Shown: positions 1,633 to 19,413, numbered from the stretch's first letter. The stretch is DNA of 19,413 bases from a virus (IMGVR_UViG_2703718769_000016:1-19413); one strand, 5' to 3'. Notes: generated by a model not told the origin, from the sequence alone. A program made the numbers and translations.

Positions 1633-4116
1633 TTAAAAATCAGCTTGACTCGGGATCAGTTTTTGCCAGATTGCTGACACGTATTTTGCCTGGTAACGCG
1701 CATCGTGCAGGGCGTTATGGCGTTCACCTTCGAATGGAATAGTCGTTCTGGCATCGAAATCTATCACCAGTCCCAGAGCAACCATCGTTCGTACATCACG
1801 ATCGTTGTTGTAGCGCCACGGACAGGGGATCCCCTGTCGTTCATATGAACGGCGTAAAATTGCGTTGTCGAAGTTGGCTCCATTTCCCCACACCTGAACA
1901 AAAAATTCACCGGAGTTTTCGGCGATAAACTCCCTGAACTGCAACAGCGCGTCATCCAACGGGATTTCATTGGTAAGAATGGCGGATTGTGCTTCGCGTG
2001 ACTGTTTCAGCCACCACTTAATGGTGTCCCGATCGATGACTCCGCCTGCGGTTTCCAGATCGATAGTTTTGCTGAATTCTGGTCCCATCTCTCCGGTTAC
2101 CGGATCAAAAAACTTACCGGCTATAGCGTTGACTGGCGCATCAGGATTTTTTCCCATTGTTTCAAGGTCAATCATCAGATGGTGCCACAACCTGCTGGTG
2201 GATGTGACTTCATTATGACCGTTCACCTTAATTAAGGGATTTGCTGTCTCGCCAGTTTCATTATCGCTATCGTGATGCTGATCACCGTCAGCATTCTCCT
2301 TGCACGGATGTTCAGGGCTTTCCTGTTTCTCCGGATTTTTTTCCTGATATTCATCCAGGTTTTCTTCATTAAAGGTGTCCTGATACGTTGCGTCGCCCAT
2401 CACCGCGCCACAGTCAGGGCAGTTACCCCCACCAGTCTGGCCGCAGGAATCGCAGGCTTTTTCGGTTTCCGGTTGTGCTTCTGGCTCGTTTTGTAACGCA
2501 TTTGGGCTGTTTTGTTCCGCTTTCTGGCCGTTCTGTTCCGTTTCTTGCTGGTTCTGGTTCACAGAATCGCGGGTTTCAATCCCCTTAACCCATTTCGGAT
2601 CATTTTGGTCGCTAATCCATTCAACAAACTCTCCGCGAGAGGCAGCCAGTACTTTGTCTGCATCGACAGGATTTTTGGGCAGAATGTTTTTCCGTGCCTC
2701 GTGGAGTTCGGCCCGTAACTTCTCGTACTTCGTATCTATCTGTGACTGAGCATCCAGCGGCTGCGTGTCCTGATGATGTTCAGTTGTGTCCGGTTCCACT
2801 GTTTCAGCCGTTGCCTGCTCATCTGCCATTGCGTCAGATGGTTGAGGTTTTTCTTCATCATCCTTTTTTCCTTCTTCTGTTACACGCTGTGGCATCGGGG
2901 CAGAGGAGCGACCGCAGGCAATGGCCACAATCATCGGGTCGGGGGTAGCGTGGTCTGTTTCAGTCAGTACCCTGTTCAGATATTCAGTGACGTGCGCGGG
3001 GATGACCTCGATACCAATTGGTGCTTCTTTCACGGACGCAACCACGATGGCGCGGGAATAATCCAGCCCACCAGGCATGGCGATGAATTTGTCGCGGAAA
3101 ACAGAAAATGGCGGTTTATTTTCAGCGATAATTTCCTCAATGCGTTTCGCGTGTGCCGGATGAAGGTTATAAATGTCCACGTCCATTGAACGAGCCAGTA
3201 CACCTGTGGCCACATCGCGCTCCAGTGACGTCAGATCGTGGACGAAACCTTCGCCGCGATCGGTAAGAATTCCACCGCCAGCATTAGCACCTGATGGGGT
3301 GCGATTGATTTCAGATACATAATTTCCCTTCGCCCACTCTTTTGTCAGTAATCCCTGATCCAGATAATCAGTTTTCATCCAGATGGATATGAACTTGTCG
3401 AATTCTGCCGGGCTGATACGACGGGTTGCTGCGTGAGTGAATGCTCTGGATACCGACTCCGCCAGTCTGCTCAGATGGTGGTTTGTCAGCTTATCCAGTT
3501 CAGGATGAGAGCGTACAGCTGTGAGGAGGCTCTGGAGGTTACTGTCCTCCATATCCATTTCCATGCGGATCACTGTATTGCGTTGTTCCGGTGTTGCGTG
3601 GTGCCTGTATTTTCCGCCTTCTTCCTTGCCGAAAAAGTAGAGATGCAGGAAACGATGAGTCAGACTGAGAGTGGCGACGGGAATTTCACATTCATGGCAG
3701 TCATCGTTACTGTCCTGGGATTTATTTTTCTCTGCGTTCTCTGGCTGAGCACCGCTTTGTTCATCGTTGTCATTGCTGGCTGTTACAGCAGCTTCGCCGT
3801 TGATGTTGTCATTGAAGGGTATAGCCATCATGGTGATACCATCTTCCCCGCCTTTTTCATAGCGGTTGCAGAATTCAGTATCAAACACGCCTTCCGGTGG
3901 AAGGTCATTCACGACGGGGAAATTTACGCGAACGGGTTTTTTGAAATCATCCTCGTCGTAGCCTGCATCGTCCATGGCTGCAATGCAGCGGGAAACTGCG
4001 ACAGAAAGTTTTCTGGCATCAGCCCAGAAAAAACCGCCTTTGATGCCAAGGCGTTTTCTGACTTTATCGTTTTTTGCTTCGCAGTGTAGTGCAAAAGTCT
4101 GTTTATCAGCGCTCAT
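1633..4116 (-). CDS. Prophage exonuclease, 827 aa, with C-terminal DnaQ-like DEDDh 3'-5' exonuclease domain, internal zinc ribbon and acidic low-complexity linkers
   Basis: C-terminus has motifs DLETMG (Exo I), [11 protein letters not shown] (Exo II), [10 protein letters not shown] (Exo III, DEDDh); [16 protein letters not shown] zinc-ribbon-like motif; long D/E/Q/N-rich segments; occupies the recombination-module position between xis and kil. Confidence 0.75.
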
Positions 4117-4610: not shown

Positions 4611-4684
4611 TTTTCAATTTCCGTTATTGATAACTAATGTAAATTACTGTTTGGTGCATATATTCGAGAGTATTTTATTACTCA

Positions 4685-6370: not shown

Positions 6371-7015
6371 CTAGAGGCTGAACTGAACACCTTTTGCTAC
6401 AGCAACGATGTTACATTCCGGTGTAAGTAAGGATGATTGATAGCGTGGGTTAAGGGGGGCTAAGTACACGAGCTTTCCATCAATAACTAATTTTTTTATA
6501 GTCATGGATGGTTCGTTTGTGAGTGGATCTGGGACTATTACTGCGACGATGCTACCATTTTTATATTTTTCGCCAGGCCTCATGATCACTGTGGCTCCAA
6601 CTGGAATGCTTGGGGATCCTGATGGATTGTGCATAGTATCATCAGGCATTGAAACGGCAAAATCTCCCTCCTTGACATCAAAGAATGTGGTGATCCTGTC
6701 GACATTTCCCATAGTTTTCTCTCCTTTTAATATTAGGAAAGAAATCGCTTCTCCCCAAGAAAGGTATGGGATTTGGGTACCTGGATTTTTCTGCACAAGG
6801 GATGATTCAGGTGATGATACTCCATACAGGAGATAGGACTCAGTAGTGCCTAGTGCTAGGGCTAATTTACTAAGAGCTTTGCTACCTGGTTCGTTTAGAT
6901 CTTTCTCCCAGTATCCTATTGTTACCCCAGTTACGCCAGAAAGCTTGCCAAGTTCAACTTGGGTCAGACCTTTGTCTTTTCTGAGTTTCTTAAGCCTAAT
7001 GCCAAGGCTTTCCAT
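6371..7015 (-). CDS. CI-like prophage repressor (N-terminal HTH_XRE, C-terminal S24 LexA-like peptidase domain)
   Basis: N-terminal LTQVELGKLSGVTGVTIGYWEKD helix-turn-helix; C-terminal domain with S24-type fold features; SD GGGAGA upstream of ATG at 7015; divergent from a Cro-like gene. Confidence 0.85.
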   Translation of the reverse strand: MESLGIRLKKLRKDKGLTQVELGKLSGVTGVTIGYWEKDLNEPGSKALSKLALALGTTESYLLYGVSSPESSLVQKNPGTQIPYLSWGEAISFLILKGEKTMGNVDRITTFFDVKEGDFAVSMPDDTMHNPSGSPSIPVGATVIMRPGEKYKNGSIVAVIVPDPLTNEPSMTIKKLVIDGKLVYLAPLNPRYQSSLLTPECNIVAVAKGVQFSL

Positions 7016-7024
7016 TATTTTCTC

Positions 7025-7114
7025 CCGCGAATTGAATATAAATTATTTTAGATTGTATTGACCTAAAAAAAATTACCCTTTAATCTAAAAATACTTAGTT
7101 TTTAAGGGGGCGAA
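7025..7114. promoter_or_regulatory. OR-like operator region with divergent promoters (pR-like for the cro-like gene, pRM-like for the repressor)
   Basis: TTGAATATAAAT at 7031-7042 (identical to the 6303-6314 site); TTGACC at 7057-7062 then 17 nt then TAATCT; SD AAGGGGG before ATG 7115. Confidence 0.4.
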
Positions 7115-7342
7115 ATGCGAGTTGATGAACTTGTCCAGTTTTTTGGTTCTGTCCAAAGAGTCGCTGATTTTTATGGGGTAACCCGAGAAGCTATATACAT
7201 GTGGCGTAAGCGTCCCGGCGAAATAGTTCCCAAGGGGAGGGCTGCTGAAGCAGTTGCATACTCCAAGGGAAAATTATCGTTGAACCCAGAACTTTACAAA
7301 AAGAAGGATAACACCTCGAACGAAAGGAAAAATGATTCATGA
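7115..7342 (+). CDS. Cro-like HTH regulator (YdaS family)
   Basis: 75-aa protein with HTH (FGSVQRVADFYGVTREAIYMWRKR); divergently transcribed from the CI-like repressor; stop overlaps the next gene's ATG (ATGA). Confidence 0.7.
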   Translation: MRVDELVQFFGSVQRVADFYGVTREAIYMWRKRPGEIVPKGRAAEAVAYSKGKLSLNPELYKKKDNTSNERKNDS

Positions 7343-7776
7343 AAATCAAACATGAGCACATCCGCATGGCGATGAATGCGTGGCTGCTTTATCCGAGGGT
7401 AGGGCGCAAAAAAATCGCTGATGATATAGCGACAGCATATTTTGAGCTTGAAATGACTTATCCACCAATGCATGACACCTCTACGACAGAGGGTATTGGA
7501 TTGAACATACAAAATATTTTTCGCTGGCTTGAAAAGGATACGCCTGATGCTGTTGAAAAAATTCAGGCACTAATTCCGGCTATCCTGACTGTTCTTCCGC
7601 GTGAACTGCGTTATCACCTCAGTATTTTTGACACTGTTGAGCGCCGTGCATTACTGGCGGCGCAGGAAGCGTTAAGTACGGCAATTGATGCACATGATGA
7701 TGCAGTCCAGGCCGTTTACCGGAAAGCGTATTTCAGCGACGGCGGGTCATCCGGCGAGTCTGTTGTGGTGCATTGA
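7339..7776 (+). CDS. YdaT-like (CII-analogue) early regulatory protein
   Basis: 145-aa ORF translationally coupled to the cro-like gene; family assignment by position and recalled similarity only. Confidence 0.5.
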   Translation: MKIKHEHIRMAMNAWLLYPRVGRKKIADDIATAYFELEMTYPPMHDTSTTEGIGLNIQNIFRWLEKDTPDAVEKIQALIPAILTVLPRELRYHLSIFDTVERRALLAAQEALSTAIDAHDDAVQAVYRKAYFSDGGSSGESVVVH

Positions 7777-7862
7777 TATTTATGCCAGACCCCTGCTGAT
7801 TCTGTTGATTGGGGAATCACAGATTATCACCAGAGGATGGTTCGTCACAAGGTGAGGCAATT

Positions 7863-8873
7863 ATGGCCGCATTACCATACATGCAACTTTACATAGCTGA
7901 TTACCTGGCGGACACCATGCATTTGTCCGCAGAGGAGCACGGTGCGTATTTGTTGCTGATGTTCAATTACTGGCAAACAGGGAAGCCAATACCCAAAAAC
8001 AGACTGGCAAAAATCGCCCGTCTGACTAACGAGCGATGGGCTGATGTTGAACCATCCTTGCGGGAGTTTTTTTGCGATAACGGCGACGAATGGGTGCATC
8101 TTCGGGTTGAGGAAGATCTGGTATCAGTCAGGGAAAAATTAACCAAAAAATCAGCCGCCGGAAAAGCATCTGTTCAAGCCAGAAGAAGCAGAAAGGAAGC
8201 ATATGTTCAAACAAAACAAGAGAGAGATTTAACAGGTGTTCAAACAAATGTTGGTGTTGTGTTTGAACATGACGCAAACACAAAAGCAACTAATAAAGAT
8301 ACAGATCTAAAAGAATTAAACCCCACACATAACGCGCGCATGCGCGAGAGTGCTCCAACCGGTGAGTCGAATGGTGCGTCGTTGCAGACAGCCGAACCTG
8401 AATACCTGGACGGCCTGAGCGAACCGATCGGGAAATTTTCGATGACCACTGTCTGGCAGCCGTCGCCGGATTTTCGACAACGGGCAGCAGTGTGGGGTAT
8501 GGCTCTGCCTGAGCCGGAATTTACACCTGCTGAGCTTGCTGCATTCCGGGATTACTGGATGGCGGAGGGGAAGGTTTTCACGCAGGTTCAGTGGGAGCAG
8601 AAATTTGCCCGCCACGTGCAGCACGTCAGGGCACAGGTAAAACCAGTCAGCAAGGGGGTAAGCCATGCAGCATCAGGTGGCACGGCATCACGGGCAGTTC
8701 AGAAAATCCGGGCAGCACGAGAACAGTGGGAACGTGAAAACGGATTTATCAGCAACGGAAACGGCCTGGAAGCTGTGGGAACTTATGGGGGAGGTTTATT
8801 CAAACCGCTGGACTCAGAAGAACGGGGCCGCACCTTCGAAGCTCTGGATTGCCCAGATTGGCGCGATGACTGA
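7863..8873 (+). CDS. Replication initiation protein, DUF1376 (YdaU-like) N-domain with DnaT-like C-terminal region
   Basis: SD AAGGTGAGG then ATG at 7863; N-terminus MAALPYMQLYIADYLADTMHLSAEEHGAYLLLMFNYW typical of DUF1376; central low-complexity linker whose DNA carries iteron-like repeats. Confidence 0.7.
   Translation: MAALPYMQLYIADYLADTMHLSAEEHGAYLLLMFNYWQTGKPIPKNRLAKIARLTNERWADVEPSLREFFCDNGDEWVHLRVEEDLVSVREKLTKKSAAGKASVQARRSRKEAYVQTKQERDLTGVQTNVGVVFEHDANTKATNKDTDLKELNPTHNARMRESAPTGESNGASLQTAEPEYLDGLSEPIGKFSMTTVWQPSPDFRQRAAVWGMALPEPEFTPAELAAFRDYWMAEGKVFTQVQWEQKFARHVQHVRAQVKPVSKGVSHAASGGTASRAVQKIRAAREQWERENGFISNGNGLEAVGTYGGGLFKPLDSEERGRTFEALDCPDWRDD
8170..8275. repeat. Iteron-like repeats (TGTTCAAAC core), candidate replication origin inside the initiator gene
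   Basis: tgttcaagc at 8172, tgttcaaacaaa at 8204 and 8238 (direct, 32-34 bp spacing), inverted copy tgtttgaaca at 8262; flanked by an A-rich stretch. Confidence 0.35.
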
Positions 8874-9327
8874 ACAGCAAATCCGGCTGGTCTGCCGTCA
8901 GTGCATGGACCGCTGCCGGGCGGGTGAAACGTGGCCCCCGGACCTGGCTGAGTTTGTTGCGCTGATTTCGGAGAGTGGGGCAAATCCATTTGGTCTTACG
9001 GTGGATGCCGTGATGGAGGAGTACCGTCGCTGGCGCAATGAATCCTGGCGGTACGACGGGAGTGATAAATACCCGTGGCCACAGCCTGTGCTGTACCACA
9101 TTTGCCTCGAGATGCGTTCAAAGGGGATTGAGCGCCAGATGACCGAAGGGGAGTTAAAACGGCTTGTGGAAAGGCAGCTGACGAAATGGGCAAAGCATGT
9201 TGGTAATGGCCTCAGTGTTCCGCCAGTCCGGCGACAACTGGCAGCACCCAAACGCCCGCCAGGGCCAACGCCAATTGAATTGCTGAAACAGGAATATGAG
9301 CGCCGGAAGGCGGCCGGTTTTGTCTGA
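8665..9327 (+). CDS. Lambda P-like replication protein (helicase loader family); start uncertain
   Basis: C-terminal two-thirds aligns by eye to lambda P ([14 protein letters not shown] / PFLPSPGQFVAWC; YPWPQP / YPWKSN). Strong SD AAGGGGG before ATG 8665 but that start overlaps the upstream gene by 208 nt; alternatives are ATG 8785 and ATG 8866 (ATGACTGA overlap with the upstream stop). Confidence 0.6.
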
Positions 9328-9361
9328 GTTGAGAAGTAATTTTTACCGGGAGGAAAATTTA

Positions 9362-10075
9362 ATGGAAACCGTATTTGACGCACTGAAAGCACTGAAAAAA
9401 GCCTCGTCGCACGAGATTGCAGCCCGTCTTGAAATCAGCCGTGACGATGCTGTCAACGAGCTGTGGAAGCTGAAACGCCGTGGTGAAGCTGATAACAAGG
9501 GGTCGATGTGGTGGCTGACGAGTGAGGCAACTGAAATGGCCACAAAAACCACTGCGGAGATGCTGATTAACGCAATTGAACAGCATGGTCCTCAGTCGGC
9601 TGACGAACTGGCGTTAATGTTCGGGATTACCTCCCGCCGGGCGAATTCAACGCTGGCAATGGCAATAAGCAAAGGTCGTCTGATTCGAGTAAATCAGAAC
9701 GGTAAATTTCGTTACTGCCTGCCGGGCGATAATTTACCAGCAGAGCCGAAAGCTGCATCGGTAACGGAAACTGCTGGTAAAGCCTTTCCTCAGCCAGCAG
9801 GTGTTGCGTTACCAGTCCGGGAAGCGGAAACACAGGAAGAAATTAAAACTGAAAGTGTGGCGGTCACAGTGCAGTCACAGCCGTCGTTCACCAGAAAGCA
9901 TCCGGATAGTCTGATTTTACCATCGCTGCATGTGGCTAACCGCGAACTGCGCCGGGCAAAAGGTCAGGTTCAGAAGTGGGAGCGAGTCTGTGCTGCGCTG
10001 CGTGAGCTGAACAAGCACCAGGATATTGTTCGACAGATTACTGATTCATCCTGTTGTGTTGCATCAGACAAGTGA
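9362..10075 (+). CDS. Hypothetical protein with two winged-helix-like segments
   Basis: SD GGGAGGAAAA before ATG 9362; 237 aa; wHTH-like stretches ([23 protein letters not shown] and [29 protein letters not shown]). Confidence 0.6.
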
Positions 10076-18354: not shown

Positions 18355-19413
18355 ATGCTTAATACTGTAAAAATATCCAGTTGTGAGTTAATCAACGCCG
18401 ACTGCCTGGAATTTATCCGGTCGTTACCCGAAAATTCTGTTGACCTGATAGTCACGGACCCGCCGTACTTTAAAGTGAAGCCTGAGGGCTGGGATAACCA
18501 GTGGAAGGGCGACGATGATTACCTGAAGTGGCTGGACCAGTGTCTTGCGCAGTTCTGGCGGGTGCTGAAACCTGCCGGAAGTCTTTACCTGTTCTGTGGC
18601 CATCGCCTGGCATCTGATATCGAAATCATGATGCGTGAACGCTTCAGTGTGCTGAACCATATTATCTGGGCGAAGCCGTCCGGACGCTGGAACGGGTGCA
18701 ACAAGGAAAGCCTGAGGGCGTATTTCCCCGCCACAGAGCGCATTCTGTTCGCGGAACATTATCAGGGGCCGTATCGCCCGAAAGATGCCGGGTATGAGGC
18801 GAAGGGCAGGGCACTGAAACAGCATGTGATGGCCCCGCTGATTGCTTACTTTCGTGATGCGCGCGCTACCCTGGGGATAACGGCAAAACAGATTGTGGAT
18901 GCCACAGGAAAGAAAAACATGGTGTCGCACTGGTTCAGTGCCAGCCAGTGGCAGTTACCGAACGAGGATGATTACAGAAAACTTCAGGTGCTGTTTGCCC
19001 GGGTGGCAGAAGAGAAACATCAGCGGGGTGAACTGGAAAAGCCACATCACCAACTGGTCAGCACATACAGTGAGCTGAACCGGCAGTATGCCAGCCTGCT
19101 GGAAGAGTACAAATCACTGCGGCGTTATTTTTCCGTATCGGCAGCCGTTCCTTATACGGATGTCTGGACGCACAAGCCTGTGCAGTATTATCCGGGCAAA
19201 CATCCCTGTGAAAAACCGGCAGATATGTTGCGGCAAATGATTACCGCCAGCAGTCGTCCGGGTGACCTGGTTGCAGATTTCTTCATGGGGTCCGGTTCGA
19301 CAGTCAAAGCAGCGATGGCGCTGGGGCGTCGTGCAATTGGTGTCGAGCTGGAGGCTGAACGTTTTGAGCAGACCGCAATGGATGTACAGAATTTAATCAG
19401 AAAGAGAGAGTGA
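18355..19413 (+). CDS. DNA methyltransferase, beta-class amino-MTase (N6-adenine or N4-cytosine), apparently orphan within this window
   Basis: Motif IV TDPPYF near the N-terminus (residues about 34-39) and motif I DFFMGSGST near the C-terminus give the beta-group motif order; 352 aa; ORF ends exactly at the window edge. Confidence 0.85.
   Translation: MLNTVKISSCELINADCLEFIRSLPENSVDLIVTDPPYFKVKPEGWDNQWKGDDDYLKWLDQCLAQFWRVLKPAGSLYLFCGHRLASDIEIMMRERFSVLNHIIWAKPSGRWNGCNKESLRAYFPATERILFAEHYQGPYRPKDAGYEAKGRALKQHVMAPLIAYFRDARATLGITAKQIVDATGKKNMVSHWFSASQWQLPNEDDYRKLQVLFARVAEEKHQRGELEKPHHQLVSTYSELNRQYASLLEEYKSLRRYFSVSAAVPYTDVWTHKPVQYYPGKHPCEKPADMLRQMITASSRPGDLVADFFMGSGSTVKAAMALGRRAIGVELEAERFEQTAMDVQNLIRKRE

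Follow-up and report, generated by a model that had tools for sequence, protein, structure and literature searches.

The stretch of DNA analysed here, referred to below as the window, is 19,413 nucleotides long (IMGVR_UViG_2703718769_000016:1-19413) and is a Rac-like lambdoid prophage of E. coli. A gene on its + strand (7863-8873) encodes an initiator protein of 336 amino acids (aa), composed of a DUF1376 winged helix at the N-terminus, a basic disordered linker and a DnaT-like single-stranded DNA (ssDNA)-binding domain at the C-terminus. The stop codon of this gene is overlapped (ATGA) by a lambda-P-like gene on the same strand (8866-9327; Pfam PF06992, Phage_lambda_P, E 2.4e-15), the product of which is the presumed helicase-recruiting partner. 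The linker-coding part of the initiator gene holds a cluster of short repeats followed by an A-rich tract and a GC-rich palindrome, and we consider it likely that this region, 8171-8346, is the replication origin of the prophage, embedded in the gene of its own initiator. This reading is based on sequence anatomy, conservation at the DNA level, helical periodicity, modular co-inheritance and predicted folds.

The initiator does not belong to the lambda O family. No match to Phage_rep_O was obtained, and the only Pfam assignments were DUF1376 (PF07120, aa 5-86, 90.7 bits against a gathering cut-off of 30.1) and the DnaT DNA-binding domain (PF17948, aa 192-258), the latter also having the DnaT fold. 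In the AlphaFold model, the N-domain (aa 20-80, with a predicted local distance difference test score, pLDDT, of ~90) and the DnaT domain are confidently predicted, residues 124-188 are disordered, and the residues encoded by the repeats (aa 103-136) span the end of a low-confidence helix and the start of the disorder. From this domain layout it follows that the repeats sit in linker-coding DNA. The fold assignment of the N-domain suggests a winged helix; in a structure search with the full-length model, the top matches were dominated by the DnaT domain and those to the N-domain were generic winged helices. The N-domain is 95% identical to K-12-type YdaU, the closest phage record over the whole initiator gene is Escherichia phage Rac-SA53 (91.8% identity), and the 250-bp region around the repeats was matched in 1429 of 5426 complete E. 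coli genomes.

Exact copies of the word TGTTCAAAC are present three times in the 19.4-kb window, all of them in the cluster within the initiator gene. The core of the candidate origin would be the array at 8237-8269, where three words spaced 12 and 11 bp apart are arranged in both orientations: TGTTCAAACA on the + strand at 8237-8246 (containing TGTTCAAAC at 8237-8245), the degenerate TGTTGGTGTT at 8249-8258 and the inverted TGTTTGAACA at 8260-8269, which includes an exact - strand copy of TGTTCAAAC at 8261-8269. Two more copies lie upstream on the + strand and may be auxiliary, namely TGTTCAAACA at 8204-8213 (with TGTTCAAAC at 8204-8212) and TGTTCAAGC at 8171-8179, which is degenerate by one mismatch and is a weak candidate site, probably auxiliary. 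The sequence-only reading of this DNA had described three direct copies and one inverted copy of a repeat in the linker-coding part of a DUF1376/YdaU-like gene, with an A-rich stretch behind them, and each of these features is borne out. The direct copies begin at 8171, 8204 and 8237, with a start-to-start spacing of exactly 33 and 33 bp, and are joined by the inverted copy at 8261-8269; the codons concerned (aa 103-136) lie between the DUF1376 and DnaT domains; and across 8240-8339 the GC content is 28-37% with an AT skew of +0.30 to +0.58, as compared to 45-60% GC in the remainder of the gene.

When extended, the repeat site is a near-palindrome, TGTT-NN-AACA, which has 3 matches in the window, all at the cluster, against 0.55 expected; three matches were reached in 3 of 200 shuffles. 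Two inverted pairs can be recognized, 8203-8218/8255-8270 (16 nt, 94%) and 8237-8246/8260-8269 (10 nt, 100%), and the core copies at 8237-8246 and 8260-8269 are invariant among the close relatives aligned. A search of the whole window for another iteron-like array returned two-copy families only, and a scan for DnaA boxes (TTWTNCACA) gave a single match in the window, at 19207, with none near 8171-8346. The repeat units (9-10 bp at spacings of 11-12 bp, 33 bp for the distal copies) fall outside the dimensions of plasmid-type iterons (17-22 bp at ~22-bp spacing). A structured RNA element at 8160-8350 was also considered and rejected, the folding z-score of -2.2 being accounted for by the inverted repeats; a scan of 7000-9500 against Rfam gave no RNA family match at E values up to 1.

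The lowest-GC part of the gene is the tract AATAAAGATACAGATCTAAAAGAATTAAA (8292-8320), a short version of a (GATACA)n element that recurs in the homologues described below, with one GATC inside it at 8305-8308. The A-rich stretch holds a specific and very widely conserved hexamer tract of GATACA type, beyond mere low-complexity DNA, and we regard the tract as a candidate unwinding or helicase-entry element and as a candidate module junction. Directly 3' of the A-rich tract lies a GC-rich perfect palindrome of 12 nt, CGCGCATGCGCG (8335-8346), which is common to the initiator of an E. coli O157 prophage whose N-domain differs. On the - strand (8349-8321), the GC palindrome and the GGGGTTTAATTCTTTTAG behind it were scored as a hairpin and T run like those of an intrinsic terminator, and such a structure would halt antisense transcription entering the candidate origin. 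At many other loci the tract is followed by C runs on the coding strand, sometimes hairpin-forming, where the window has the GC palindrome instead; examples are GATCCCCCCCTAAATCCCCCCCGGGGG in K-12 ydaU (L005 / L175 ~4628-4655), L040 (~515-545) and the viral loci L070, L082, L110 and L119.

We compared 50 loci encoding DUF1376 homologues, taken from one-genome-per-species contigs. Their hosts include Enterobacterales, Pseudomonas, Azotobacter, Methylococcaceae, Propionivibrio, Marinobacterium and Frateuria, and metagenome-assembled genomes assigned to Planctomycetaceae, Terracidiphilus and Bacillales are also represented. Conservation of the repeats in homologous genes had been named beforehand as a test of the origin proposal, and arrays were indeed found at the same place, with a helical (11-bp) and not a codon period. 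Nearly all of these loci carry 2-4 copies of a CGTT(C/G)AACG-like near-palindromic word at the equivalent position, typically 11 bp apart and in both orientations, and the core array at 8237-8269 matches in position the trio CGTTCAACG / GTTGAA / CGTTTGAACA of distant homologues. Such words, 2-4 at this place, were recorded in 29 DUF1376 homologues, ranging from Enterobacterales through Pseudomonas and Azotobacter to various metagenome-assembled genomes. In one locus (L037, GGGTGTTCAACGGGTGTTCAACGACCGTTCAACGAC), three copies of GTTCAACG 11 bp apart fall in three different frames and are translated as C-S-T, V-Q-R and F-N-D. Two others (L023 and L024) have CGACCGTTCAACG three times each, at spacings of 11 and 22 bp, and Pseudomonas phage UFJF_PfDIW6 carries CGACCGTTCAACGACCGTTGAAATCCCGTTGAACG at the equivalent position.

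Among 30 DUF1376 loci, the density of GTT[CG]AAC is 10.3/kb in the 110 nt upstream of the tract and 0.28/kb elsewhere, a 37-fold difference, and the motif is found in all three reading frames. Since the same word is used in all three frames, the constraint acts on the DNA and not on the peptide. A motif-free autocorrelation of 5-mers in the 80 nt upstream of the tract gave 5.3, 2.4 and 1.8 self-matches per locus at lags of 11, 22 and 33, respectively, as compared to ~0.1 in control segments. Lags of 11 and 22 are not multiples of three, and therefore the period is that of the DNA helix rather than that of codons. In the protein alignment, G-V-Q-T of the window stands opposite D-R-S-T of its relatives with the DNA word kept (GTGTTCAAACA vs CCGTTCAACG); the reading frame over the word has thus shifted while the word stayed. 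These comparisons indicate that the repeats are conserved as DNA and not as peptide; where the DNA-binding domain is a different one, as in initiators described below, the repeat word is different as well.

In some DUF1376 genes (L022, L028, L029, L031, L034 and L036, ~3265-3560), the N-domain is followed by an insertion that weakly matches T5orf172 (KIGYSKNPWARLSELR). The DNA of these segments is full of CTACG, CGTAG and GTAGCTAC words, which in L022 stand directly before a AATACAGATCCAGATAAAGATACAGATCT tract, and they may be another class of repeats.

A tract of the type (GATACA)n or AATAAAGATACAGATCT lies directly 3' of the repeat array in almost every DUF1376 homologue. In Enterobacterales it takes the form AATAAAGAT(A/C)CAGAT...GATCTAAAAG, and in other hosts it is a pure (GATACA)n run. 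When the tract was delimited by its protein sequence (alternating Asp/Glu-X), Asp was found to be encoded by GAT at 107 of 108 positions, whereas the remainder of the same genes has 190 GAT and 249 GAC; for Thr, ACA was used in 69 of 69 instances, compared with 86 of 438 outside the tract. A definition by DNA pattern, which is biased toward ACA, gave the same codon result, and the codons stay frozen also where the locus has a GC content of 57-65%. Translation of the tract invariably gives Asp-Thr (GAT-ACA), and this fixed reading combined with the fixed codons means that it is constrained both as DNA and as peptide. The 11-bp period, the use of three reading frames in homologues and the frozen tract codons together support the earlier proposal that this DNA is doubly constrained, as coding sequence and as protein-binding site.

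In the Enterobacterales loci, GATC occurs at 28.9/kb in the tract and at 3.0/kb in the flanks (~10-fold), an enrichment that is absent from the loci of non-enteric hosts. Its limitation to Enterobacterales suggests that the candidate origin is under control of the Dam/SeqA type. The Enterobacterales tract is reminiscent of the GATC-rich AT regions in oriC (13-mers) and P1 oriR, a likeness that we regard as a lead only. Examples of GATC-bearing tracts are seen in L012 (3406-3453) and in the window (8305-8308).

Comparison with two relatives in E. coli reveals how the region is assembled from modules. From the start codon (7863) through the repeats and the tract, K-12-type YdaU and the window are ~94% identical, and all similarity ends at ~8313; the partner of this YdaU is the DnaC-like YdaV, whereas that of the window is P-like. 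What the O157 prophage initiator has in common with the window is the tract, CCCCACACATAACGCGCGCATGCGCGAG downstream of it, the DnaT domain and the P partner. Its N-terminal half gave no match to DUF1376, and five GTCACGA(C) words ~10 bp apart occupy precisely the place of the TGTTCAAACA words in the window. This locus (L053) contains two GTCACGA(C) clusters, one directly before the tract (2449-2498) and the other in N-domain-coding DNA (2168-2228), 260 bp upstream of the tract-adjacent one. The mosaic breakpoints flank the tract, directly adjoining it on the right in the K-12 type and on the left in the O157 type, and the P-like gene co-varies with the C-terminal module of the initiator. The N-domain and the repeats therefore form one cassette and the tract, the C-domain and the partner another, with the tract at the joint. 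In the N-domain-coding region of the window, the repeat word is partially matched by GCTGATGTTCAA and GCTGATGTTGAA at 7955-7966 and 8040-8051, 85 bp apart; by analogy with the upstream cluster of L053 they might be weak auxiliary sites, or they might be due to chance.

The layout extends beyond DUF1376 genes. The exact word GATACAGATACAGATACAGAT, which is (GATACA)3.5, is present in at least 120 viral contigs; 80 of these loci were read (L055-L134), and 76 had enough upstream sequence. In 58 of the 76 the word lies at aa 100-220 of an open reading frame (ORF) of 200-450 aa, and 74% of these 58 loci have a 6-mer repeated at least three times in the preceding 90 nt, as compared to 4.4% of control windows. 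Which word is repeated varies between loci (GAACGCA, GTAACG/GTTAC, GTGACG/GTCAC, GTCGC, GAAACGTT, CGTTCAACG, GAAGCA and others), and the N-domains of ten such ORFs were DUF1376, Phage_rep_org_N (with Phg_2220_C), Lin1244_N or unassigned. In cultured phages, distant DUF1376 genes likewise carry their own repeated words in the linker DNA, namely AGCA(A/T)TGCT repeats followed by (TCACCT)3 in a Leptolyngbya phage, ATGCAAATGCA-type repeats in a Rhizobium phage and AACCCAAGTGGTT twice, 33 bp apart, in an Acinetobacter phage.

Judged by these sequences, repeats followed by a (GATACA)n tract look like a general architecture of origin and initiator. We propose tentatively, and with slightly less than even confidence, that the tract is a shared DNA-level site of unwinding and helicase entry (or priming) for interchangeable cassettes of N-domain and iterons, which doubles as a recombination joint and has been retuned with GATC in Enterobacterales. 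The N-domains covered by the proposal are DUF1376, replisome-organiser N, Lin1244-N and unannotated ones, and the hosts range from Enterobacterales and Pseudomonas to metagenome-assembled genomes assigned to Planctomycetes, Acidobacteria and Bacillales. In the searchable literature we found neither a description of this pan-phage layout nor GATACAGATACA or DTDTDTD in the context of a phage origin, and the (GATACA)n element, which is shared widely, may be new.

Several genes were identified around that of the initiator. An S24/LexA-type repressor gene on the - strand (6371-7015), a Cro-like gene (7115-7342) and a YdaT-like gene (7339-7776) precede it, and a DUF1627 gene lies 3' of the lambda-P-like gene. 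We envisage that the DUF1376 winged-helix domain of the YdaU-like protein would bind the near-palindromes TGTT-NN-AACA. With a spacing of one helical turn, the core trio at 8237-8269 would allow the proteins to stack on one face of the DNA, with the copies at 8204 and 8171, three turns apart, serving as auxiliary sites. The resulting nucleoprotein complex would strain and open the adjacent low-GC tract AATAAAGATACAGATCTAAAAGAATTAAA, bounded by the GC palindrome, and the DnaT-like ssDNA-binding domain together with the P-like protein would bring the host DnaB helicase onto the opened strands. Initiator binding, tract unwinding and helicase loading are steps that we infer from sequence, and delivery of the helicase in particular is suggested by the order of the genes and the identity of the domains. 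As in lambda, the process may be helped by transcription that runs through the gene from the early rightward operon. Because this DNA also has to code for a flexible, basic/acidic linker that is tolerated, it is under a dual constraint.

The arrangement invites comparison with known origins. In lambda, ori lies in the central part of initiator gene O and consists of repeated initiator-binding sites followed by an AT-rich region (PMC7466680). The window resembles it in that repeats with dyad symmetry precede an AT-rich region inside an initiator gene with a P-family gene next to it, and in that, as in lambda O, the N-terminal half and the iterons form one exchangeable module while the C-terminal half goes with the P partner (PMC7466680). 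A further likeness is to the Stx phages, where extra distal iterons add residues to the protein. The comparison with lambda made by the sequence-only reading stands as regards the repeats and the A-rich region inside an initiator gene, with the refinement that the protein is not a homologue of lambda O. Unlike in lambda, the initiator consists of a DUF1376 winged helix with a DnaT-like C-domain, and the unwinding region holds a GATACA-type hexamer tract conserved far beyond lambdoid phages. The sites also differ: lambda iterons are 19 bp in length, whereas those of the window are 9-10 bp at a spacing of 11-12 bp (33 bp for the distal copies).

A candidate origin inside the gene of the origin-binding protein itself is also reminiscent of SPP1, where oriL is embedded in gene 38, coding for the replisome organiser G38P, and comprises AB boxes bound by G38P and an adjacent AT-rich unwinding element (PMC5737612). 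The N-domain family of SPP1 is different and its host belongs to the Firmicutes; one viral contig with a Phage_rep_org_N initiator does have the layout of repeats and (GATACA)n seen in the window. Iteron plasmid origins (P1 oriR, pSC101 and R6K) similarly have repeated initiator sites adjoining an AT-rich region, but the sites of the window are shorter, one helical turn apart and inside coding sequence. The region is very probably a lambda-like origin on an unrelated and uncharacterised initiator family, DUF1376/YdaU.

For the Rac prophage, an active origin named oriJ that supports plasmid replication has been reported (PMC3945230), and a passage of PMC11014345 that cites Potrykus et al. (2000) likewise states that the Rac origin oriJ drives plasmids. 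The array of the window recurs in K-12 ydaU, as TGTTCAGGC, two copies of TGTTCAAACA and TGTTTGAACA, and so does the tract. Since the K-12 Rac homologue carries the same array, the array is probably the nucleotide-level position of oriJ, and that of the window is probably the nucleotide-level counterpart of this genetically defined origin. The two prophages differ in the C-terminal module, the window having a DnaT domain and a P-like partner instead of the K-12 C-terminus and the DnaC-like YdaV. The MG1655 RefSeq record has no origin feature at ydaU and calls YdaU a DUF1376 protein, a search of the accessible literature, in which the original mapping papers on oriJ were not included, found no link of DUF1376 or ydaU to an origin, and present annotation does not seem to assign oriJ a fixed nucleotide position.

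Several observations weigh against the region being an origin. Judged inside the window alone, the cluster is modestly unusual, as at least three copies of some 9-mer within 70 nt were obtained in 9 of 400 first-order Markov simulations (p ~0.02), and therefore the weight of the case rests on the comparisons. The loci compared are phylogenetically related, so that Fisher p-values overstate their independence, and in the alignment no changes of N-domain residues could be linked to the change of the repeat word between the CGTTCAACG and GCGAACGC groups. The distal copies vary among close relatives, with TGTTCAGGC in the K-12 type, where it takes the place of the copy at 8171, and ATATTCAAAA in Rac-SA53, where the copy at 8204 is mutated; in more distant homologues the latter coincides with a 4-codon gap. 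The copies at 8171 and 8204 thus look like additions to the conserved core trio 8237/8249/8260. The hexamer identity of the tract could come in part from microsatellite slippage and homogenisation; slippage may help homogeneity without explaining why the same hexamer is retained in such different hosts. Lastly, the primers said in PMC3945230 to frame oriJ map to ydaV, at a distance of 0.7 kb downstream from the K-12 repeats, and delimit an amplicon of 155 bp in the Walker A region inside K-12 MG1655 ydaV (L175 5241-5395). We considered this amplicon as an origin and rejected it, since it holds no repeats, its GC content is ordinary with no AT-rich dip, and ydaV is absent from the element in the window; we take it to be a nearby copy-number probe.

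Three other explanations were weighed against an origin at 8171-8346. It is very improbable that a low-complexity peptide linker (an 11-residue V-Q-T repeat and an acidic TD stretch) gave rise to the repeats as a by-product, through duplication and slippage and without any role as DNA. Such a linker would account for three direct copies in one frame, 11 codons apart and encoding VQA, VQT and VQT, for the predicted disorder of the repeat region and for the slippage-prone hexamers, and the invariable Asp-Thr reading of the tract shows that the protein frame matters too. It would not account for a word that in homologues recurs at 11- and 22-bp spacing in all three frames with unrelated peptides, that is kept where V-Q-T of the window aligns with R-S-T of the relatives and that encodes V-F-E-H in its inverted copy, nor for different DNA words at the same place next to unrelated N-domains, nor for tract Asp and Thr codons that have not drifted even in GC-rich hosts.

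It is unlikely, although less so than a peptide by-product, that the repeats are sites of an initiator or regulator for autoregulation, titration or handcuffing, with the true origin located elsewhere, for example in or near the helicase-loader gene. Many initiators autoregulate through iterons, the second cluster 260 bp upstream in the O157-type gene could be a control locus, and the published oriJ primers do lie in ydaV. However, the repeats are inside the gene, far from the promoter, and always adjoin the low-GC conserved tract, which is the classical pairing of iterons with an unwinding element; no other repeat array or DnaA box is nearby, and the ydaV amplicon has neither repeats nor an unusual GC content. 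The window has the P-like gene where K-12 has ydaV, and therefore an origin internal to ydaV could not serve the prophage of the window; the N-domain, the repeats and the tract alone are common to both. We consider it as improbable as a peptide by-product that the tract and its flanking repeats are chiefly a recombination joint for swapping initiator halves and not an unwinding element. Such a joint would produce breakpoints on either side of the tract, as seen in the K-12 type (right) and the O157 type (left), as well as a tract common to initiators with unrelated N- and C-domains. A joint is nevertheless compatible with an origin, lambda-type origins having the same boundary between specificity and partner modules, and it leaves unexplained both the helically phased repeats upstream and the GATC enrichment limited to Enterobacterales.

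An origin embedded in the initiator gene would provide a function and a testable DNA target for DUF1376/YdaU, a domain of unknown function that is widespread in phages and prophages, and would offer a nucleotide-level candidate for oriJ, which is unannotated in the K-12 reference record. It is a clean example of DNA that is predicted to be doubly constrained, by coding and by protein binding or unwinding, and in which the reading frame is visibly overridden by what is required of the DNA. The places at which initiator genes recombine are likewise explained by the layout. If the wider proposal on the tract is true, phages would share an origin architecture composed, in order, of a winged-helix domain, 11-bp-phased iterons, (GATACA)n and a partner domain. 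The recurring signature of phased repeats and (GATACA)n could be used to locate origins and initiator genes in uncharacterised temperate phages and metagenomic viral contigs.

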